A DNA stretch of 64,000 bases from Promethearchaeota archaeon (GTDB lineage Archaea > Asgardarchaeota > Lokiarchaeia > Sigyniarchaeales > SOKP01): positions 1-64,000 of the forward strand of contig JAUVXW010000014.1 of assembly GCA_030603385.1 (NCBI GenBank), written 5' to 3'. Each line of letters begins with the position of its first letter. Within the stretch, counting starts at the first letter, position 1. The position numbers and the translations under genes are program-made. Shown here piece by piece: positions 7,416 through 20,601 of this stretch. The notes beneath the pieces were generated by a model, which ran no database searches, had not been told where the DNA came from, and saw only the letters and a list, made by a program, of their open reading frames with translations.

Positions 7416-8801
7416 TCATAATTTATCAGAATGTTCTACTGTAATTTTTACCCATTTATCAATTTCTTCAAGAATTTCAGTCTTTTCTCTCAGACTTAAC
7501 CCAATATTAGGTTTTGTTCGTTCATAAATATTTGAATATTTGCTAAGATCCCATAAATAATTTTCGTGAAGTATTTTCTTTTTGATATTATTTCTTGCTA
7601 TATCAAACGCTTTTCCAATTGTAGTTATGTCATAATTTTCTTCAACAATCTTTTTTAATGTCATAAGAATTTCTAAGGTATTATCATGAGGTATATATGG
7701 AAGAGGTTTAATCTCTACAAAAGGGCGTTTCATGGTTCTAAGTTCAAATCCTTCTTCTTTTTTTTGGAATTTCAAGACTTCTGGTTTTTCAAGCATTTCT
7801 TTTTTATCAGGTTGATAAAGTCTGGTTTTTTCCTGGATAATACTGCTTTCCAATTGTTCTCTTGTTTGTCTTTTAAGTTGTGTTGGCCATTCTTTAAAAG
7901 AATTCATTCTACTTTCAGCAGAGATGAAAATTGATTCTTTTGGCATTTTTTTATCCATTCGATCATCCTCAAGATTAAATGAAAATGATTTAGATGTTCT
8001 AAGTAAAGGGGATGAATTTTCAATTATTGAAAAGAGAAACATAGGATCATAATGAATCGAAGAATAGAGAATTTTCAATTTTATAATGGATTCTTTAATC
8101 TTTTTCAATTCGGATAGAGTGAAGTTCTCATTTAAAATTTTATCTGCTCCAAAATTAATTCCAAATAGCCCAGCAGTAGAATTTAAATACGCAGTTTTAG
8201 GTTCGTATTCCATATCTCCTGAAATCAATATTTTGTTGTAGAAATCCCAATGAGTACTTAACAACATGTGTCCACTTCTATTTAATTGAAAAGATTGTGG
8301 CTCACGGATTGTTTCCATAAACTCTAAAAAGATGTCTTTATAAGGAATGAATAGGTTTCTCATTAGAGTGCCTTGTATAAAGGTTATTTTATTTTCTGAT
8401 TTGAACGACATATCTATTGGTAATTTGAATAATTTTTCACCGATTATGACATCTCGATCATTTTCTAAAGTAATGTTTTTTGAGGTTGCTAAATGATCAT
8501 AGACAAAATCAGGTAAAATCAAACCTGTTAATTGTCGATTATCTGTAATATATATTCCAGATTGTAATTCAAACTTTACATAATAATATCCCAACCCAAA
8601 TAAAAAGTAAAGTGTTCCTCTTTCTGTAGAAAGGGCACATTCAGTTCCACCTAAAAAAATAACAAGATCTTGAGAAATTTTCGAAATATTATGATTAGCA
8701 TAATTTCCGAATGTGGGGTAACCTAGTAAATCACCCCAACTTGGGATCACAAAGAAAATGTTATTTTTTACTATTTTCTTTTCAAGGAGATGCATTGACA
8801 T
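7416..8801 (-). CDS. Hypothetical protein, probably co-transcribed with the profilin-like gene
   Basis: 461-aa ORF ending 24 nt upstream of the profilin-like start; no family recognised. Confidence 0.7.
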   Translation of the reverse strand: MSMHLLEKKIVKNNIFFVIPSWGDLLGYPTFGNYANHNISKISQDLVIFLGGTECALSTERGTLYFLFGLGYYYVKFELQSGIYITDNRQLTGLILPDFVYDHLATSKNITLENDRDVIIGEKLFKLPIDMSFKSENKITFIQGTLMRNLFIPYKDIFLEFMETIREPQSFQLNRSGHMLLSTHWDFYNKILISGDMEYEPKTAYLNSTAGLFGINFGADKILNENFTLSELKKIKESIIKLKILYSSIHYDPMFLFSIIENSSPLLRTSKSFSFNLEDDRMDKKMPKESIFISAESRMNSFKEWPTQLKRQTREQLESSIIQEKTRLYQPDKKEMLEKPEVLKFQKKEEGFELRTMKRPFVEIKPLPYIPHDNTLEILMTLKKIVEENYDITTIGKAFDIARNNIKKKILHENYLWDLSKYSNIYERTKPNIGLSLREKTEILEEIDKWVKITVEHSDKL

Positions 8802-11134: not shown

Positions 11135-12274
11135 TTAAGTTTTTTCTAATTCCATCTCTGCTATTGCTTTCGCACTACGGAAAGGTATATCATCAAGAGA
11201 CATACCTGCTTCATAACCGAACTTTTCCTTGAAAGATTCATTTAATGATTGAAAATAGAGTGATAACGGTAAGTTTTGGGGGCAGTTATTATCGCAGTTA
11301 CCACATTCAACGCACCTGTCAGCATCGTGAGCTATTCTTGTTAATTGGTAAGTTACTTTATCTATTGTTTTAGCCTTTCTCTTTTTCTGTAGTATACAAT
11401 CCACACAGTAGCAAACCGGGCAACCTCTAATGCAAGTGTTGCACATAGTGCATTTGAGTAGCTCTGCTATCTTTTCTTCCTGTGATAATTTTTCCCATTC
11501 TTCCAAATCTTTTGCCCGTTTTTCTTTCGCTTTTTCAATTATTTGATTGTAAGTATTTTCATGTTCTTTTTTGATATTATCTGGAAGTTCTTTCTTTGCA
11601 ATTCCTGATTTTTCAAGAATTTCATTTCCTTTATCTGAATAAACTTTTAGAATTATCTCTTCTGAATCAATAGGAATTCCAAGATCGCTTATTGTTAAAT
11701 CAGCGACGACAGGAATCTTTCGGAAACATCTTAGACAATTTTCAGCAACAGTGAGCTTAAGTTCTTTTGTGCTTCCATCATCCATTTTAACAATAAGGCC
11801 TTTATCTCCAACTTTTTCTTTAACGATTTTTGTTGGATCAACATCCTTAATTGATCTCATTTCTCGTCCAGCTTTCGGAAGCATTCCCCTATCTTCTATA
11901 CCAACTATAAAAAGATTATCTAGATTTACTTGTTTGATTTTAGCAAGTTCAATTAATGCTCTTGTATCGCATGGGCGTGCAATGAGTCCTACTTTCTCGT
12001 TCATCGCACCTGCTACAGATTTATGCAAATATTTTGATGCAGAATCTGTTCTTGTGTAACCAAAAGCAATTAGAGGGAATAATGGGAAATCTGAAAGATC
12101 TGCTTCTTTCTCCACTAATTTTGGTTGAACAGTAAATCTATCTATATTTCCAGATTTTTTATCAACTCTCAATTGAGCGCCAATAAATTTATCAACGACT
12201 TTTTCTTTCAGTAAAGTGGCTAAGATTTTAGAAAAATCTTCACTCTTAATTAGGTATTCTTCCATTGCATCCAT
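11135..12274 (-). CDS. FdhB/FrhB-family (F420 hydrogenase/formate dehydrogenase beta-like) subunit with 2x[4Fe-4S]
   Basis: ARPCDTRAL.EL.K..QVN.DNL, NCLRC, ADL, CTMCNTCIRGCPVCYC, CVECGNCDNNCP. Confidence 0.85.
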   Translation of the reverse strand: MDAMEEYLIKSEDFSKILATLLKEKVVDKFIGAQLRVDKKSGNIDRFTVQPKLVEKEADLSDFPLFPLIAFGYTRTDSASKYLHKSVAGAMNEKVGLIARPCDTRALIELAKIKQVNLDNLFIVGIEDRGMLPKAGREMRSIKDVDPTKIVKEKVGDKGLIVKMDDGSTKELKLTVAENCLRCFRKIPVVADLTISDLGIPIDSEEIILKVYSDKGNEILEKSGIAKKELPDNIKKEHENTYNQIIEKAKEKRAKDLEEWEKLSQEEKIAELLKCTMCNTCIRGCPVCYCVDCILQKKRKAKTIDKVTYQLTRIAHDADRCVECGNCDNNCPQNLPLSLYFQSLNESFKEKFGYEAGMSLDDIPFRSAKAIAEMELEKT

Positions 12275-12392
12275 GTATTTCCAACTCTAAAATACAAATT
12301 AATTAATTACAAATTCTTATTTTTTTTCTTAAATTTACAAATCTTTTGAAATAAATTTTTCCAATTTCTATTAAATTTTGAAAAACTATTTT

Positions 12393-12466
12393 ATGTGTTA
12401 TATGGTGCACCCATTTCTTCAGCATGAGTTCTCATTTTTTTAACTCAGCCTCATCAGTAAACACAT
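12393..12466 (-). promoter_or_regulatory. Eukaryote-type SECIS element
   Basis: Minus strand: helix I AUGUGUU/AACACAU; core AUGA(G) 12454-12451 / UGAA 12421-12418; helix II GCUGAGUU/AACUCA(U)GC; apical loop AAAAAAAUGAG. Begins 7 nt after the vhuD stop. Confidence 0.85.
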
Positions 12467-12473
12467 TAATTTT

Positions 12474-12932
12474 TTAAGCTTTAGCTTTCGCTTTAGCTTT
12501 TCCTTTTTTAGGTGTCCCTTTAATCCGTAAAGGACTTGGTCCCAACTTGCGGATGGTTTTATCGATTTCTATAGCTTCTCTTTGAAATTTTTGACCTTCT
12601 GCAGCTGTACAATATATTATTTTAATTCTTTCAGGGCTCACTCCAACGACCTTTAGAATTTCTTTAACATATTCCACTTGACGATATGCATAGTAATTTC
12701 CTGTCTCATAGTCACACTCTCCAGGATATCAAGCATTAATAACAACGCCATCAGCACCTCTACCGAACGTTCTCATTATTAGATCGCATCCTACGCGCCC
12801 TGCACAGGGCACCAATACATTTCGGATTGAATCTGGATAATTTGCACGAATTGTACCCGCCATATCAGCTGCCCCATATCCTCATTTCCAGCAAGCATAT
12901 ACAATAATTTTAATATCATTATTTTCTGCCAT
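12474..12932 (-). CDS. vhuD: Hydrogenase iron-sulfur subunit MvhD/VhuD, selenoprotein with 2 Sec (152 aa)
   Basis: From ATG 12932: MAENNDIKIIVYACWK-U17-GYGAADMAG...VPCAGRV...GADGVVINA-U68-YPGECDY...; TGA at 12882-12884 and 12729-12731 occupy conserved Cys positions. The ORF track has only the tail. Confidence 0.92.
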
Positions 12933-12949
12933 TTTATTTCTCCACCTCT

Positions 12950-14932
12950 CTACTCCTCAATTGGTAATAAAACATCTATAAGCGCCATGTATTGGTCGTC
13001 TCTAAAGTACGTTAAATCAATTGCTTTTGAAGGACATAGACCCGCACATGTTCCGCACCCTCGACAATTAATTAAGTCAACAACGAGATTTCCTGTTTCA
13101 TTTACCGAGATAGCACTATATGGACAAGCTTCTATACATTTATAACATTTAGCACAACGCTCATCTGAGGGTGTAGCTCTGATTAATTCCATTGTATATT
13201 CTCCTTTTCCCATTGGAATGCCTGCTACCGATGCTGCTCCTCTTGCTTGGCTTACTGTTTTGTCAATCTCTTTTTGACCTTGAGCAGATCCACAAATGTA
13301 GATCCCAGGCACTTTAGTACTAATTGGGTCAAGTCGAGGATGATATTCCTTTAAGAAACCATCTGGACTTCTTTCCATCTTTAATACCCGAGCAATTTGA
13401 AGGGTACCTTGCGATGGAAGAGATGCTGATGATAATATAACCATGTGGACTTCCATAGAAACTACACTATCAGTTCCAACCGGTTCAAATTGTACTGTAA
13501 GGTTTTTTGTTAGAGGATCTTCTTCTATTTTTCCAACTAATCCCTTGACAAAAATTGTTCCCGCATCTCGAGATCTTCTATAATATTCTTCGTAATCTTT
13601 TCCAGCACATCGCATATCAATGTAAACACAAACGATTTGTGAATCGGGGTACTCTGATTTAATAAGTTTTGAGTTTTTAAGGGAAAGGTTACAGCAGATA
13701 ACGCTACAATGAGCATTTTTATTTATATCTCTTGACCCAACGCAATTGATAAACAAAATCTTAGTAGGACGTTTGCCATCAGAGGGTCGTATTAAATGCC
13801 CATATGTTGGACCGTTTGGCGCAAGTATCCTCTCTAGTTCTATTTGATTAATAACATTATCAAAAATACCATATCCATAATCATCACCTTTATAGAGGTC
13901 CCAACCAGTAGCAACTATTATAGTACCAATATCAAGTTCTACAATTTTATCCTGTTGACTAAAATCTATGGCTTCTTGTTCACATGCATCAACGCAAGCA
14001 AAGCATTCAATACACACATCTCTTTCAAGTTGTGATACTGCTGGTACTGCTTGAGCAAAAGCGATATCAATTACTTTTCTAGCAGATAAGTGCTCATCAA
14101 AATAATTACTCGTGTACACAGGACACACATCAGTACATGTTCCACAACCAGTACATTTTGTTTCATCAACGAATCGGGCTTTTCTTTTAACTTTAACTTT
14201 AAAGTTGCCAATATAACCATCTATTTCTGCAACTTCACTGTATGACAAGATTTCTATATTTGGATGACGATTAGCTTCAAGCATTTTTGGTCCCAAGATT
14301 CATATAGAACAATCATCTGTCGGAAAAGTTCTATCAAGTTGGGACATACGCCCTCCAATTGTTGTATTCTTCTCAACTAAATATACCTTATATCCAGCAT
14401 CGCCCAAATCGATAGCAGCAGATAATCCAGCAATTCCTCCACCAACTACAAGAGCAGAAGGTTCTACTGGAACTGTTTTAGTGGGTACATCTTCCAATAA
14501 CCATGCTCGAGCAATACCCGCTTTAATTAATTCGATTGCTTTCAGTGTAGCTTTCTCACGTACCTCCGGAGCTTGATGTACAAAAGAGCAGTGTTCTCGT
14601 ATATTCACAAATTCTAAGTATCTTGGGGGTAATCCCATCTCTGTTAATATGGCATGAAATACAGGTTGATGAGTCTTGGGTGTACATGCGGCAACTAATA
14701 TTCTACTAAACTTTACATCCTCATGTTTCTCCTTAATTTCAGCAGAACCGCCTTCAGTTCAAAGAGAAAGATATGGGTAAGCCCAAACGTTATCTATTTT
14801 ATTTATTTCTTCGACTATTTTTGGGATATCTAATATGCCTGCTATGTTAATACCTCAGTGGCAGACGAACACACCTATTCTAGGCTGAACTTCGTCTTCA
14901 TTACTATTACTATTGGTCTGTTTATCAGACAA
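12950..14932 (-). CDS. hdrA: Heterodisulfide reductase subunit A, selenoprotein with 3 Sec (~660 aa)
   Basis: One frame from TTG 14932 (GGTGA 5 nt upstream): RIGVFVCH-U26-GINIAG, YLSL-U58-TEGG, VAACTP, NIREHCSFVH, GGGIAG, FPTDDCSI-U211-ILGPKM. TGA at 14855-14857, 14759-14761 and 14300-14302. Confidence 0.93.
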
Positions 14933-14989
14933 TATGTTCACCTTTGTTTAACTTAACCTCCTATTTTTCTAAGGCTATACTTTTTCCTA

Positions 14990-15011
14990 ATTTCTTAGTT
15001 AGCTAAGAAAT
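14990..15011. promoter_or_regulatory. Perfect 9-bp inverted repeat upstream of hdrA (candidate operator or 5'UTR hairpin)
   Basis: ATTTCTTAG-TTAG-CTAAGAAAT, ~60 nt upstream of the hdrA start. Confidence 0.4.
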
Positions 15012-15140
15012 ATGTTATGATAGAGTAAATAGTGTATATTATTAAAATTAAATTATTATAAAATTTTAATTCAAAACTTTAGAAGTCATTATATCTACAC
15101 TTTTTAAATTAAATAAAAAAAGTTAAAAAAAAAATAAAAT

Positions 15141-15698
15141 TTATGCTTCAGATTCTTTTAAAATATCTCCAAAAAGTCGTTTTACAGCATCTATCCGCTT
15201 CTCTTCACCAATCTGTTCTACATCTTTTAATGATATAGCTTCTTTTGGGCATAAATCAATGCAAGCAGGATACTTTTCTCCTCTTTCTGGGTTTATATAA
15301 TCTTCTTTCATAGTCTCGCAAAGATCACAGATAATCGCTTTTTGAGTTTGAATGTGTAAATTTAATACTCCAAACTCGCACGCTCTAATACAGAAGGCAC
15401 ATCCGTTACACTTGTCATCGTCTACGATAATTGAGCCTGTTTCTTTGTCTTGTTCTAAAGCCTTTTCTGGGCAGCTGCGAACACATGGAGCGTCATCGCA
15501 TTTTTGACACGCTAATGCGATATTTAAGATGGGTTCTATTCTTACTCTATGGATTCTTGTGTTAATTGGATTAAATTCGCCATCATGTACAAAAGAACAT
15601 ATAGATTCACATGTTTCACATCCAGTGCATAAATTTGGGTCCACAATAATAAATTGATGAACAACTCCGCCTCTTTTCTTGGTTCCTATTTTTGACAT
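15141..15698 (-). CDS. 4x[4Fe-4S] electron-transfer subunit associated with AOR (DmsB/HydN-like)
   Basis: CTGCETCESIC, CQKCDDAPCVRSCP, CNGCAFCIRAC, CDLC...PACIDLCP; abuts the AOR gene. Confidence 0.9.
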   Translation of the reverse strand: MSKIGTKKRGGVVHQFIIVDPNLCTGCETCESICSFVHDGEFNPINTRIHRVRIEPILNIALACQKCDDAPCVRSCPEKALEQDKETGSIIVDDDKCNGCAFCIRACEFGVLNLHIQTQKAIICDLCETMKEDYINPERGEKYPACIDLCPKEAISLKDVEQIGEEKRIDAVKRLFGDILKESEA

Positions 15699-17630
15699 TT
15701 ATTTTTTACCTCCCGAAGGGATTAATTTGCCAATTACAAAATCTAATCCAAGAGACTTTAATGTTTCATCAGTTGGAATTCCTGTCTTAGTATCCCAGCC
15801 ACGAGCTTCATAATAACCACTTAATAACGTTTGATATCCATCTTCCTTTAAAACAACTCCTTTAGCTGGTCCTTTTGTGTGTGATTCCTTAAAGAACCTC
15901 TCAGGAGGATGATCATCCGCTCTAGTCCATCCCTCTCTGATGTTAAAGCATTTTGAAAGATTAAGAATAGCCTCTCCTCTCTTTTGTATAAATTTATCAG
16001 TTACCGGAATTCCAGTTACAAGATCAAAAACTTTTGCCATTTCAGCATCATTTTCATAAATTCCTCGAGTAAATTTACAAATTATATACGAGTCTATGAT
16101 AGCGTAAATATCTTCTAATTCTTTAATAGCTTTTCCTCTTTCAAGGGGTTTATCATAGGCAAATCTATCAAATTTTCCTTTTGCATCTAATCCATAGGCC
16201 CCATTTCTTAAATGGCATGCCCCTCTAATTGAAACGCTTTCTCCAACGGCAAATGAGCTCATTCCATGAAGATCAAATGCAGGCATTTCCAAGCCCTTAA
16301 TGTGCATACCATAAAAACTAGCTTTCTTTTTACCCATTTCTTCTAATCGTATACCTGCTTGTTTAGTACCATCACCGAAAATCTTTCCAGCAAATCCTTT
16401 ACCTAAAATCATTTCTTCCACGAATTTTGCAAGATTTACAGTAGAACCAAAAGGTAATTCATAACCTAAGTCTTCTTTGGTAATCAATCCCAAATCAAAA
16501 CATTCACATGCCATTGCTGCAGTTACACCTCCTGAAATTGCGTCAACCCCCAAATCATCACTTAATTGAACACACTTAAATACCGTTGGCCAATCATAAC
16601 ATCCTGTAGCAGTACCGAAACTGTAACAAAGCTCTACATCTATACTGGCATATAAGTTAGGCCAATGAGGATGTGTCTTTGGTATTTTAGTAATATGATC
16701 ACACGCAATTGAACATTGAGAACATGCGACCTTTTTTACCACCCAGTCATTATTAAGTGTGTCTCCTGTAAAAGTTCCATCATCAATTTTTTCCCAAGTT
16801 CCCTCACGGTGATTAAATGTGGGCATCATTCCAAGTTTGTTATAGCTTGTTATGCCTGCAGGAGTTCCTAAATCTCGATATTTAGCTGTAGCAGGGCCAT
16901 TAGCAACTTTAATTAATTTTTTAGCTAAATTAAAAAACTCAACAGGGTGTGCTACTTTCACGCCTTTAGTACCTCTAAAGCATACAGCTTTAAGGTTTTT
17001 AGACCCCATAACTGCGCCCATCCCAGTTCTTCCTGCTTGTCTATTACGATCATTGGTTATGCACGCCATTCTGCTCATTCGTTCTCCAGCAGGACCAATT
17101 GCCATGACTGCCAATCTCTGATCTTGAAATTCTTCTCTCAACAATTCTTCTGTTTCCCAACAACCTTTTCCCGCAAGTTCTGGGCATGGAACGATATAAT
17201 GATCATCATCATCCACAACCATATATGAAAGTTCTGGTGCTTTCCCTTTGAATACAATCATATTGATACCAGCACGACGAGCTTGAGCTCCAACAGATCC
17301 AGAGGATATTGCCATACCAAACATACCGGTTAATGGAGATTTAGCAAATACTCCATATTTAGAACTTGTTGGTAGTATAGTAGCTGGAAATGGACCATGT
17401 GCATATATAAACACATTCTCTGGGCTTAGGGGATCAACTCCCGCAGGGCATTCGTCCCATAATATTTTACTCGCGAATCCGTAGCCTCCAATCCAGTCTC
17501 GGCAAAACTCATTAGATAACGTAGATTTACTAATCTTTCCATCTGTTAGATCTACATCAATTCTAACCTGCGTAAAGCCCGAAATCTTGTCAGGAATAGG
17601 TATTTCTTTAGTTTTACTCATGTTTTTCAC
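15699..17630 (-). CDS. aor: Tungsten aldehyde:ferredoxin oxidoreductase family protein
   Basis: AKSPLTG, IGPAGE, AGRTGMGAVMGSKNLKA, CSQCSIAC, D.LG.D.IS, YYEARGWD. Confidence 0.92.
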   Translation of the reverse strand: MKNMSKTKEIPIPDKISGFTQVRIDVDLTDGKISKSTLSNEFCRDWIGGYGFASKILWDECPAGVDPLSPENVFIYAHGPFPATILPTSSKYGVFAKSPLTGMFGMAISSGSVGAQARRAGINMIVFKGKAPELSYMVVDDDDHYIVPCPELAGKGCWETEELLREEFQDQRLAVMAIGPAGERMSRMACITNDRNRQAGRTGMGAVMGSKNLKAVCFRGTKGVKVAHPVEFFNLAKKLIKVANGPATAKYRDLGTPAGITSYNKLGMMPTFNHREGTWEKIDDGTFTGDTLNNDWVVKKVACSQCSIACDHITKIPKTHPHWPNLYASIDVELCYSFGTATGCYDWPTVFKCVQLSDDLGVDAISGGVTAAMACECFDLGLITKEDLGYELPFGSTVNLAKFVEEMILGKGFAGKIFGDGTKQAGIRLEEMGKKKASFYGMHIKGLEMPAFDLHGMSSFAVGESVSIRGACHLRNGAYGLDAKGKFDRFAYDKPLERGKAIKELEDIYAIIDSYIICKFTRGIYENDAEMAKVFDLVTGIPVTDKFIQKRGEAILNLSKCFNIREGWTRADDHPPERFFKESHTKGPAKGVVLKEDGYQTLLSGYYEARGWDTKTGIPTDETLKSLGLDFVIGKLIPSGGKK

Positions 17631-17838
17631 TATTATTTATGAGTTATTTTTTGTAGATAATTATGAAAAAATAAAGTATCAAAATTTTAAAGGTTAATTG
17701 TTAACTCTAAAAAACACCCTCTTTAAAATGAGAGTAAAATAGAAGAAAAAGTAATAGATTAATATTGAAAAATATGCAAAATAGTATATTTTTTATAATG
17801 ATTCTGGAGATAAACCTTCAGTAAAATAATAAATTTGA

Positions 17839-20601
17839 TTAAATTAAAAAGAGTATTTGTCCTAGAAAGCTTACTATATCAACTACTTTTAATTTTTCTT
17901 TTAATTCTCGATGTTCATTTAAATAACAATTTAAGTGAGCTATGCATTTTGGACAAGCGGTAATTAAGTATTCTGCGCCAGTCTCTATAGCCTGATTAAT
18001 TTTTTTCTCTTGGAGTTTTTTTGAATCTTCACTACAAGAAATATAAGCAGAAACTCCACAACACTCCGCATCTTGCATGGTATCTTCCATTTCGACTAAT
18101 TCTATAGAGGGAATTTGTTTTAGTACTTCACGCGGAGCATCAAAAACATTATTCATTCTCCCAAGTCTGCAGGGATCGTGATAAGTCACTTTTATTTTGT
18201 CTAAACTTGGAAATGATATATCTTCTAATAGTTTTTCTTTTAAAATATACTCAGTAATGTGGTAAATCTCAAAATCAAACTCATCAGTACCCTTAAAAAG
18301 ATCCTTGTATTCATGTTTCCAGGTATAATATCCTTCAGCACAACTAAAGATAAGAGTTTTAACTCCTGCTTCTTTAAACAATTTTATATTATATTCAGCT
18401 AATTTTTTAAAAGTATCTACATCTCCACGCCAAAGACTGTCATGACCACAACACTTTTCTTCGGGTAGTACAACTGGAACAATATCATTTTGATTCAAAA
18501 TACCTATAACTCTTTTAGGAATTTCTAAGTAATCAGGAGCATTCAGAGATCGCCAATTATCTTGACTCCCATAATCACATATCATAACTCCAGAAGCATC
18601 AAGTGCTTTTTCAAAATCTTCTGGGATCTGATCAGAATTAGAGCAACAATTACAATTTAAGCAACGGTTAGCTTCTTTTTTCGCTTGTTCCTCAGAAAAA
18701 CCTAATTCTATTTCATCAAAACAAACCAGCCTTTCGGAACTGGGCATAAAGTTCATTTCTTGGCATGATTGTGATTGTATATACTTTTTAGGAATAGTAG
18801 ATCGTTTAAGATCATTCTTTCTTATTCTTCCTTCTTTTAAATCAAGCCCTCGGAGATAACGATCAATAGTAAATGCCGCTTCTCTCCCATCTCCAATGGC
18901 ATCAACAGCACACATTAATGAATTATAAATTATATCTCCTCCAGCAAAAACACCAGGAATTCCAGTTTCATATGTCAAATCATCAACTACAATTTTTCCT
19001 CTTTCAATTTTTAATTTTTTATCCGTAGCAGCATTAAGTGGTTCTGGATCAAGTCCCTGACCAATCGCTATTACAATATGATCGACAACGATTTTAAATT
19101 CTGAACCTTTAATTTTATTTAAAGGTCTCCTCCCTGTTTCAGGGTCAGGCTCACCCCATTCAATTTTATAGCAATTCAAAGCTAATTTTCCATCTGGTTC
19201 TTGAGTGATTTTCGCTGTTGATGTCTCAAAATGGTATTCCATTACTTCTCTCTCAGCCTCATGCAAATCCTTAAGTACATTCTTTAAAGCTTCTTCTGTC
19301 AAAATATCGACAAGATCAGCCTTGGTTGCTCCGAGCCGAAGAGCTGTTTCACCAGCATCAACGGCTACTGCTCCACCTCCAATAATTCCAAAAGTTTTGC
19401 CCTTAAATTCTTCTGGATTTTCCACACATTTATATTTTCGCTCTAAAAGAAAATCTATGGCTACATGCACGTTAGGTAAATCTTCACCTTCAAGTCTGAG
19501 AGTTTTGGGTACATACAAGCCGACAGCAATAAAGACAGCTTTAAAATCGTGTTTCCAAATATCTTCTATTGTGAAATTTGGACCAAACTCTTTATTTAAA
19601 ACAATCTCTACTCCCATGCTTTTTATAAAATCTACATCATGGTCAAGAGCCTCATCAGAAAGTCTATATTGTGGAACACCGTATCTTACGACTCCACCGG
19701 TTTTATCCCCTTTCTCGAATATGGTTGGTTTATATCCCATTCTTGCGAGAAAATAAGCAGCAGATAATCCACCTGGTCCAGCACCAATAATAGCAACTTT
19801 TTCTTTAGTTTGCGCCACAGGTTTTATTCTACTTTGATTAGGATGTTCAGTTTCCCAGTCGGAAACAAATCGCTTAAGTTCACGGATAGCAACTGGATCA
19901 TCAAAATGTTCACGATTACAATTTAATGCACATTGAGCAGTACAAATTCGTCCACATAAGTAAGGTAACGGGTTTGTTTCTCTTATTAGATCGATAGATT
20001 CCTGAAATTTGCCTTCTGAAATTAATGAAACGTATCCTTGGACATCAACTCCTGCAGGACATCCTACAACACAAGGTGCTGTACCTGTTAAGAAAGGTAC
20101 GCATCCCATAAAGTAGCCAATTTCTCCTTTATCCGTTGTTTTTAATCCTGTTCCTTCTAAAAATCCAGTTTTATTAGTAAATTTGATTTTATCATCAGCC
20201 ATTAATTTAGGTAAACTTGAGTATACTCTTTCATGATTACAGCTCAATAAAGTCTCTTTTAATGGTTCATATTCTGAAGCCAACGAACGAAGATCTTTAA
20301 TAATTTTAGTAAAATTGACGCCTACATCTTCCTTAGTCATTGGACAATATACTGAACACAATCCACATGTTAAGCATTTCCATATGTCATTGTTTTCTAA
20401 AGCCTCTTCGGGTGTTGAAAAAGTAAGATCCATAATTAGGCTACGTGGGTAAAATATATCAAGATAAGCAGTTGGACATACATTGTTACAACGATTACAT
20501 GAGTAACAATAATTAGCAGCAGTATTTACTCTTTTGAGCAACTTTATTGACTCTGCACTCGTGATTTTTTCATCAGCTACTTTATTATCAGATTCAGTCA
20601 T
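17839..20601 (-). CDS. Fusion: HdrC-like 2x[4Fe-4S] + HdrB/D CCG domains with an inserted NfnB/GltD-like flavoprotein
   Basis: CYSCNRCNNVCP, WKCLTCGLCSVYCP; GYFMGC; APCVVGCP..NPLP..CGRIC; GAGPGG; GGGAVAVD; GVFAGGD; EKCCG, CAEG; TYHDPCRLGR, ECCG, ACPKC. Confidence 0.85.
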   Translation of the reverse strand: MTESDNKVADEKITSAESIKLLKRVNTAANYCYSCNRCNNVCPTAYLDIFYPRSLIMDLTFSTPEEALENNDIWKCLTCGLCSVYCPMTKEDVGVNFTKIIKDLRSLASEYEPLKETLLSCNHERVYSSLPKLMADDKIKFTNKTGFLEGTGLKTTDKGEIGYFMGCVPFLTGTAPCVVGCPAGVDVQGYVSLISEGKFQESIDLIRETNPLPYLCGRICTAQCALNCNREHFDDPVAIRELKRFVSDWETEHPNQSRIKPVAQTKEKVAIIGAGPGGLSAAYFLARMGYKPTIFEKGDKTGGVVRYGVPQYRLSDEALDHDVDFIKSMGVEIVLNKEFGPNFTIEDIWKHDFKAVFIAVGLYVPKTLRLEGEDLPNVHVAIDFLLERKYKCVENPEEFKGKTFGIIGGGAVAVDAGETALRLGATKADLVDILTEEALKNVLKDLHEAEREVMEYHFETSTAKITQEPDGKLALNCYKIEWGEPDPETGRRPLNKIKGSEFKIVVDHIVIAIGQGLDPEPLNAATDKKLKIERGKIVVDDLTYETGIPGVFAGGDIIYNSLMCAVDAIGDGREAAFTIDRYLRGLDLKEGRIRKNDLKRSTIPKKYIQSQSCQEMNFMPSSERLVCFDEIELGFSEEQAKKEANRCLNCNCCSNSDQIPEDFEKALDASGVMICDYGSQDNWRSLNAPDYLEIPKRVIGILNQNDIVPVVLPEEKCCGHDSLWRGDVDTFKKLAEYNIKLFKEAGVKTLIFSCAEGYYTWKHEYKDLFKGTDEFDFEIYHITEYILKEKLLEDISFPSLDKIKVTYHDPCRLGRMNNVFDAPREVLKQIPSIELVEMEDTMQDAECCGVSAYISCSEDSKKLQEKKINQAIETGAEYLITACPKCIAHLNCYLNEHRELKEKLKVVDIVSFLGQILFLI

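Follow-up and report, generated by a model that had tools for sequence, protein, structure and literature searches.

The window analyzed here is a 64,000-nt stretch of DNA from a Promethearchaeota archaeon of the Lokiarchaeia (assembly GCA_030603385.1, contig JAUVXW010000014.1, positions 1 to 64,000). On its minus strand lie two adjacent genes, hdrA and vhuD, with five in-frame UGA codons that are predicted from alignments to be decoded as selenocysteine (Sec). Together they form a selenoprotein gene pair of a Lokiarchaeial metagenome-assembled genome (MAG), in which a single selenocysteine insertion sequence (SECIS) past the vhuD stop codon probably serves both cistrons; we put the probability of this reading at about 0.8. 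The evidence comprised the structure of the two genes, the conservation of their TGA codons, one site that alternated between Sec and cysteine (Cys), a covarying SECIS that was the sole one of the locus, and most of the Sec machinery in the genome. The window is contig C25 of this MAG (3.9 Mb in 58 contigs, 94% complete, 7% contaminated) and had a GC content of 32%.

When TGA was read as Sec (U), a 663-codon frame opened at 12950-14941 (hdrA) and a 152-codon frame at 12474-12932 (vhuD), confirming the three and two in-frame TGA codons reported in a preliminary description of this DNA. TGA was the terminator of 6 of the 39 long frames in the window, indicating a standard genetic code. Species-representative genomes were scanned for orthologs, and 21 such loci were obtained, each of them in a MAG of Promethearchaeota or other Asgard archaea. 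The list of open reading frames (ORFs) offered GTG 14941 as an alternative hdrA start, which would give 663 aa. Because the upstream alignment of 19 hdrA orthologs contained an invariant AAGGTG(A) followed, after 5 nt, by an invariant [T/G]TG TCT G, the true start is most likely TTG 14932, with the Shine-Dalgarno sequence GGTGA 5 nt before it. From this TTG, hdrA (12950..14932; minus strand, as for all features of the window described below) encodes a heterodisulfide reductase subunit A of 660 aa with three Sec codons. The product had Pfam FAD and Fer4 domains and matched NCBIfam HdrA2 with 737 bits, the NCBIfam HdrA score being below the cut-offs of models that extend 110 to 135 positions beyond the end of the match. 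It aligned end to end with solved HdrA chains (PDB 9sfi_A, E 3e-203), and the HdrA architecture was present, with an N-terminal iron-sulfur (Fe-S) domain, a thioredoxin-reductase fold binding flavin adenine dinucleotide (FAD), and inserted and C-terminal ferredoxin domains. The second gene, vhuD/mvhD (12474..12932), encodes 152 aa with two Sec codons and was assigned to Pfam FlpD (PF02662, 3e-39, 134 bits); its best PDB matches were MvhD/VhuD chains (E ~1e-32). The two genes were 17 nt apart (12933..12949), as previously described, and a GAGGTG Shine-Dalgarno sequence for vhuD was read within this spacer. Their stop codons were TAG for hdrA and TAA for vhuD; across the orthologous loci the hdrA stop was always TAA or TAG and never TGA. 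In all 21 loci the hdrA-vhuD junction was either 7 to 19 nt long or a 26-nt overlap via an alternative upstream ATG.

The first Sec codon of hdrA, U26 (VCH-U, 14855..14857; numbering from TTG 14932), lies in the N-terminal Fe-S domain, was TGA in 19 of 19 orthologs and aligned to Cys13 of 5odc_A. The second, U58 (LSL-U, 14759..14761), lies in the same domain and aligned to Cys46 of 5odc_A; at this site TGA was present in 4 orthologs and TGT or TGC in 15, a direct alternation of Sec and Cys. The third, U211 (DDCSI-U, 14300..14302), is the canonical CxxU Sec by the FAD and was TGA in 20 of 20 orthologs. In vhuD, U17 (CWK-U, 12882..12884) and U68 (NA-U-YPGEC, 12729..12731) were both TGA in 22 of 22 orthologs, aligning to Cys16 and Cys67 of 9sw2_D, respectively. 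All five TGAs fell on columns of invariant Cys or Sec in homologs, so that the alignment to HdrA and MvhD orthologs proposed earlier as a check matched at every position; the chance of five random codons all landing on such columns was ~2e-7. The retention of TGA in 19/19, 20/20, 22/22 and 22/22 independent MAG loci, together with the Sec/Cys split at U58, showed that these codons were due neither to sequencing error nor to a pseudogene.

The SECIS (12393..12466), delimited by folding and an alignment of 22 sequences, started 8 nt past the vhuD stop, at the beginning of the 199-nt gap 3' of this gene. It comprised helix I (12460-66 paired with 12393-99), an AUGA (12451-54, 20 nt past the vhuD TAA), a 9-bp helix II with one bulged U (5' strand 12442-50, 3' strand 12421-30), an A-rich apical loop of 11 nt (AAAAAAAUGAG, 12431-41), a GA (12419-20) and a side hairpin with the core UGG-GUGCA-CCA (12402-14). 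The AUGA was invariant in 22/22 orthologs, as was the A of the 3' dinucleotide, of which the G was present in 21/22 (AA in L027); the GAG at the end of the loop was also invariant. In helix II, 98.9% of the cells of the alignment paired, with compensatory changes in 8 of the 9 pairs, compared to 26 to 51% in slid-control alignments. The bulged U occurred in the window and six orthologs, and the stem was perfect in the others. Helix I and the side hairpin were invariant in the ortholog group, and their pairs give no support for or against the fold. The element matched the published lokiSECIS, in which AUGA is followed by a 9-bp stem with an A-rich loop of 11 nt that has AG at its end, and then by GA. 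The distances from the UGAs to the AUGA were 277, 430, 1848, 2307 and 2403 nt. The earlier claim of only one SECIS, eukaryote-like and placed after vhuD, was upheld.

To this element were added five others in the same genome (C10:120878-120912, C26:64799-64833, C20:48003-48037, C47:3236-3270 and C34:53446-53480). All six had a lower helix I and, located 3' of the GA/AA core at a distance of 2 to 6 nt, a small extra hairpin, giving a three-way-junction shape. The sequence of the side hairpin varied between the paralogous elements, the hairpin itself being retained, and unconstrained folding yielded the junction in four of the six.

A second recoding signal was searched for with a descriptor that required, in order, [AG]UGA, 8 to 11 stem base pairs in which one mismatch or one bulge was tolerated, an A-rich loop (9 to 14 nt), and GA or AA. 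The descriptor recovered all six SECIS identified in this genome. On the mRNA strand between 12275 and 15140 (2866 nt) it found no second Loki-type SECIS; the one hit was the post-vhuD element, and 0.09 hits were expected from shuffles. No local synonymous constraint was found after the UGAs, where the 12-codon diversity was 0.38 to 0.50 versus gene means of 0.41 and 0.39, giving no sign of a constrained element comparable to the bacterial in-ORF SECIS or the eukaryotic Sec redefinition element. Rfam, which contains no Loki SECIS model, gave no match at gathering thresholds in the whole window and no SECIS family at E up to 10 over 12000-15300. Covariance model R1, built from 22 orthologs, scored the window SECIS at 66.6 bits (next best window match, 14.5) and missed the paralogous elements on C10, C20, C26, C34 and C47; model R2, built from the 5 paralogous SECIS, missed the window SECIS. 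The best R2 match (7862-7910) lay inside an ordinary 464-aa ORF, and the second R1 match of the genome (C55:21448) lay in the 5' part of a coding region and had two stem mismatches; both were taken as chance. Genome-wide, a loose descriptor was too noisy at 32% GC, and the paralogous SECIS could not be aligned in register with MAFFT. With regard to the scan for further elements suggested in the preliminary description, the descriptor detected no second SECIS in 12275-15140; the covariance models were too sequence-specific for claims of absence, and for this reason the conclusion that the locus has no second SECIS is drawn from the descriptor and from the test of synonymous sites.

At least four Sec-containing hdrA loci were present elsewhere in the genome (C10, C26, C47 and C20). 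HdrA had three Sec at the C10 locus, four at C26 (C26:64821-67388, L045) and two at C47, and VhuD had two Sec at each of these. The four Sec of the C26 HdrA occupied three of the four invariant N-terminal Cys and the CxxU site, and the likely vhuD stop of this locus was a UGA inside the AUGA of the SECIS. The C20 locus (C20:45961-48037, L046) carried an hdrA with two Sec and no vhuD, and its SECIS was located 12 nt past the hdrA stop. This post-hdrA SECIS was clearly homologous to the post-vhuD SECIS of C47, and the locus looks like a natural variant in which hdrA has a dedicated SECIS. Since an hdrA without vhuD carries this type of element, the type serves hdrA in this genome, which lends indirect support to the post-vhuD SECIS serving hdrA in the paired loci. 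Each selenoprotein gene or pair examined in the genome had its own SECIS within ~20 nt of a stop codon. Apart from the hdrA loci, a 158-aa ORF on C34 (L049:990-1466, minus strand) contained two in-frame TGAs side by side (HAD-U-U-ADV), and 9 nt past its stop stood a perfect Loki SECIS (9-bp stem, 11-nt loop; L049:947-981, minus strand).

Upstream of hdrA, a block of ~50 nt was almost invariant in 19 orthologs. It was promoter-like (15018..15047), containing a TATA-like TTTTAATA at 15040-47; because this box sits ~26 nt ahead, 15018 is a reasonable candidate for the transcription start, as judged from conservation. Two invariant Shine-Dalgarno-like motifs preceded hdrA (14955-14963 and 14938-14944), the first being UAGGAGGUU at ~24 nt and the second AAGGUGA at 5 nt from the TTG. 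An in-frame TGA just upstream of hdrA in seven orthologs was rejected as a Sec codon, since it is part of the GGTGA of the Shine-Dalgarno-like motif. When the alignment upstream of hdrA was folded with RNAalifold, the only pairing obtained was a weak one over the AGGAGG motif (-0.9 kcal/mol). Close relatives of the locus were found in two metatranscriptome runs of one study. In one run, a single RNA-library contig of 1832 nt (~95% identity) spanned 11349-13191. It covered the FrhB-like gene that follows the SECIS, the entire SECIS-containing intergenic region, vhuD and the spacer, and it reached 240 nt into hdrA. Other RNA-library contigs tiled hdrA as far as 15018. This bridge fits co-transcription of hdrA and vhuD. 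The region 15019-15128 was uncovered in both runs, with the RNA contigs stopping at 15018 and DNA contigs continuing; coming from one study, this was not counted as evidence, although the contig ends coincide with the spacing of the conserved promoter.

The Sec machinery that had been sought in the genome was clear in the case of tRNA-Sec (UCA anticodon, 63 bits) and SepSecS (391 bits), which adjoin each other on C41. Several points weigh against the shared-SECIS reading. A 472-aa GTPase resembling SelB, the Sec-specific elongation factor (EFSec), had selB as its best family with 235 bits versus 142 for EF-1-alpha, and a PSTK-like protein had archaeal PSTK as its best family with 148 bits, but both scores were under the curated cut-offs (242 bits for selB, 290 bits for archaeal PSTK). 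SelD was not found on any contig of the 94%-complete MAG with TIGR00476 and NF010705; the best candidate was a HypE-like AIR-synthase protein on C34, with 87 bits against a cut-off of 125. The SelD gene may just be missing from the bin, given the completeness of the MAG. Lokiarchaeia are not known to have an SBP2-like adaptor (Mariotti et al. 2016, PMC4989117). An RNA contig over two genes is not the same as a single RNA molecule, and RNA libraries may contain DNA. Finally, the hdrA 5' untranslated region (UTR) contains a conserved hairpin (14990-15011), and divergent elements could escape covariance models as specific as R1 and R2.

The last two points also bear on the best surviving alternative, that hdrA has its own recoding signal of an unrecognized type, in the 5' UTR hairpin or in a structure within the ORF, and that the SECIS serves vhuD only. 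Methanococcus uses a SECIS in the 5' UTR for one gene. The hairpin (8 bp, CUAA loop) lies early in the hdrA leader, ~8 nt past the candidate transcription start, and in most of the 19 orthologs a hairpin was retained at this site while its sequence and loop differed (mean z -2.2 in per-sequence folds). However, no AUGA/GA core or conserved unpaired motif was found in it among the 19 orthologs, and its loop size was variable. Synonymous-site constraint was no higher after any hdrA UGA, and neither the descriptor nor Rfam, even at E up to 10, produced a match. Moreover, the C20 hdrA, which lacks a vhuD, carries a standard Loki SECIS right past its stop, indicating that the hdrA genes of this genome rely on that type. 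A separate signal for hdrA is therefore considered improbable.

A still less probable alternative is that the SECIS acts in trans or by local concentration, such that loaded EFSec serves any nearby ribosome stalled at a UGA and linkage on one mRNA is unneeded. Such a mode would suit this genome, which has several SECIS elements and no fewer than five hdrA loci that contain Sec. The presence of a SECIS of its own near a stop codon in every selenoprotein gene or pair examined, and the strict conservation of hdrA-vhuD adjacency, would be hard to explain if linkage were irrelevant. Separate transcription, with hdrA decaying or truncated or its UGAs read by near-cognate tRNAs without Sec, is hardly credible: standard gene callers do split hdrA at the TGAs and SelD was not found, but in as many as 20 independent genomes the three TGAs are found at identical Cys-aligned codons, in intact full-length frames under purifying selection, nothing promoter-like accompanies the Shine-Dalgarno in the 17-nt gap, the junction is spanned by an RNA-library contig, and tRNA-Sec, SepSecS and an EFSec-like protein are encoded in the genome.

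The reading in which one SECIS is common to both cistrons, as proposed in the preliminary description, was thus supported by the single descriptor hit, the flat synonymous variation, the conserved junction and the RNA contig. From these we infer that both proteins are translated from one transcript and that the SECIS acts across the boundary between the two cistrons. In this mechanism, hdrA and vhuD, and probably also the FrhB-like gene, would be transcribed as one mRNA from the conserved promoter near 15018. Ribosomes would initiate on each cistron independently, at a TTG in hdrA and at an AUG in vhuD, both of which have a Shine-Dalgarno of their own. The one kink-turn SECIS just past the vhuD stop would recruit the Sec-specific elongation factor with Sec-tRNA(Sec), and looping of the RNA would bring the factor to ribosomes that have paused at the UGAs of both cistrons, 0.28 to 2.4 kb upstream, a mode of delivery likened to that of the eukaryotic 3' UTR SECIS. 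If true, one SECIS acting on five UGAs in two cistrons over 2.4 kb would be the longest-range and the only cross-cistron Sec insertion known, and could plausibly represent a stage intermediate between the archaeal and the eukaryotic mode of Sec decoding, an argument that dates from 2016. The locus is a well-defined test case, with a probable transcription start, a SECIS fully mapped including helix I and the side arm, a U58 site polymorphic for Sec and Cys, and a paralog in the same genome with the same SECIS type directly after hdrA.

The Sec positions were also mapped on solved Hdr structures. HdrA U211 aligned to X (Sec) in 9sfi_A, a chain of the solved Methanococcus complex, and to Cys205 of 8rvu_a, the Cys205 of the Cys202/Cys205 pair of M. 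marburgensis. VhuD, which has the FlpD/MvhD fold with its two Sec at the CxxU and G-U-x-x-x-C positions, aligned at both U17 and U68 to X (Sec) in 9sfi_K; U17 corresponds to MvhD Cys16, and U68 to MvhD Cys67, beside His68 and Asp71. U211 and the two VhuD sites are thus the canonical Sec positions of methanogens. The N-terminal Fe-S domain has only four invariant Cys positions (5odc Cys11, Cys13, Cys46 and Cys71), two of which are taken by U26 and U58. All five Sec had been described as standing at Cys-ligand positions; all five are indeed invariant-Cys sites, but not all are documented cluster ligands, as the Cys at the HdrA CxxU site (Cys205, our U211) and MvhD Cys16 (our U17) were termed "additional conserved cysteines" in PMC13580544, where an unidentified ligand is bound by the pair in the structure. 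Sec197 of M. maripaludis was seen to form part of a Cys-Sec feature that lies between FAD and cluster A3 (PMC13518236); the same residue (Cys197) was described, after a crystal structure, as a ligand of the N-terminal cluster of the partner (PMC9012536). At least one of U26 and U58, and probably both, would ligate the N-terminal [4Fe-4S] cluster. From their alignment to these chains, the five Sec appear to gather around the flavin and the electron junction of the mobile arm, and the mapping on the 2026 Hdr structures suggests a reason for the concentration of selenium there.

A wider reading that joins the RNA and the enzyme and exceeds what has been published is held only tentatively, and we regard it as doubtful. 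In it, the SECIS would be an intercistronic three-way-junction RNA in a transcript of at least three genes (hdrA, vhuD and the FrhB-like gene) starting at ~15018, serving the two upstream cistrons only. All five Sec would then lie on the mobile-arm electron path of an Hdr enzyme with selenolate-ligated Fe-S clusters and a Sec relay, U26 and U58 being in the "shuttle" [4Fe-4S] domain and U68 corresponding to MvhD Cys67, by elimination a probable [2Fe-2S] ligand.

The shared-SECIS arrangement was published in 2016 and again in 2024, and its inference from this DNA is a correct rediscovery. In Lokiarchaeota, HdrA-VhuD pairs have one lokiSECIS in common, after VhuD, and are most likely translated from one polycistronic mRNA with up to six UGAs over ~2 kb (Mariotti et al. 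2016, PMC4989117). In the same study hdrA and vhuD were invariably in tandem with tiny or overlapping junctions, hdrA never ended in UGA, HdrA had up to four Sec at five positions, and VhuD had two. The preliminary description had called a triple-Sec HdrA unusual. This did not hold, since such proteins are normal for Lokiarchaeia and a four-Sec paralog is encoded in the same genome. The window locus resembled these pairs in gene order, the short or overlapping junction, the single SECIS only after vhuD, the SECIS shape, the several HdrA Sec including the CxxU and N-terminal sites, the two VhuD Sec, and an hdrA never ending in UGA. It differed in belonging to another MAG and another ortholog group and in the bulged U of its stem, and it adds the RNA-contig bridge and the promoter block.

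Huang, Xiao and Zhang (2024, PMC11227280) extended the shared-SECIS picture to 227 Sec-using Asgard MAGs, in which hdrA and frhD/vhuD were always neighbors with very short spacers and almost all had one common structure like the eukaryotic SECIS (eSECIS-like); the type I core in Asgard was AUGA_GA. The window locus agreed with these elements in the hdrA-frhD/vhuD neighborhood, the one eSECIS-like structure and the AUGA_GA core. In contrast to their finding of no conserved nucleotides in either the internal loop or the lower stem, these were nearly invariant in the ortholog group of the window. The side hairpin arm is absent from the descriptions of the element in the main texts of both papers, and the main text of Mariotti et al. 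likewise does not describe the lower helix that completes the three-way junction seen here.

Methanococcus and Methanopyrus share with the window the two VhuD Sec and the HdrA CxxU Sec at the same positions (X in PDB 9sfi), as well as the hdrA-vhuD synteny. However, in methanogens HdrA contains a single Sec and comes with a SECIS of its own, which is of a different, GC-rich type (Mariotti et al. 2016, PMC4989117), whereas the HdrA of the window has three Sec and no SECIS of its own. The mRNA of eukaryotic selenoprotein P is similar in that a kink-turn SECIS behind the coding region acts over a long range in the decoding of several UGAs; it differs in having one ORF and two SECIS, whereas the window has two ORFs on a prokaryotic operon and one SECIS, probably located between cistrons. 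What the present analysis adds to the published systems is the assignment of the start codon and promoter, the RNA-contig bridge, the paralog that lacks vhuD and has its own SECIS, the lack of local synonymous constraint, and the Sec sites on the 2026 Hdr structures.

The gene 3' of the SECIS (11135..12274) encodes an FrhB/FdhB-like Fe-S protein (Pfam FrhB_FdhB_C) and was kept at this place in the orthologs, the order hdrA, vhuD, FrhB-like gene being retained in all 21 loci. On the other side, the minus-strand neighbors upstream of hdrA (15141-20601) included genes for a 185-aa poly-ferredoxin and an aldehyde:ferredoxin oxidoreductase (15699-17630), followed further upstream by a 920-aa GltD-like flavoprotein fused to HdrB-type CCG domains (17839-20601). 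This neighborhood looks like a set of electron-bifurcation genes.

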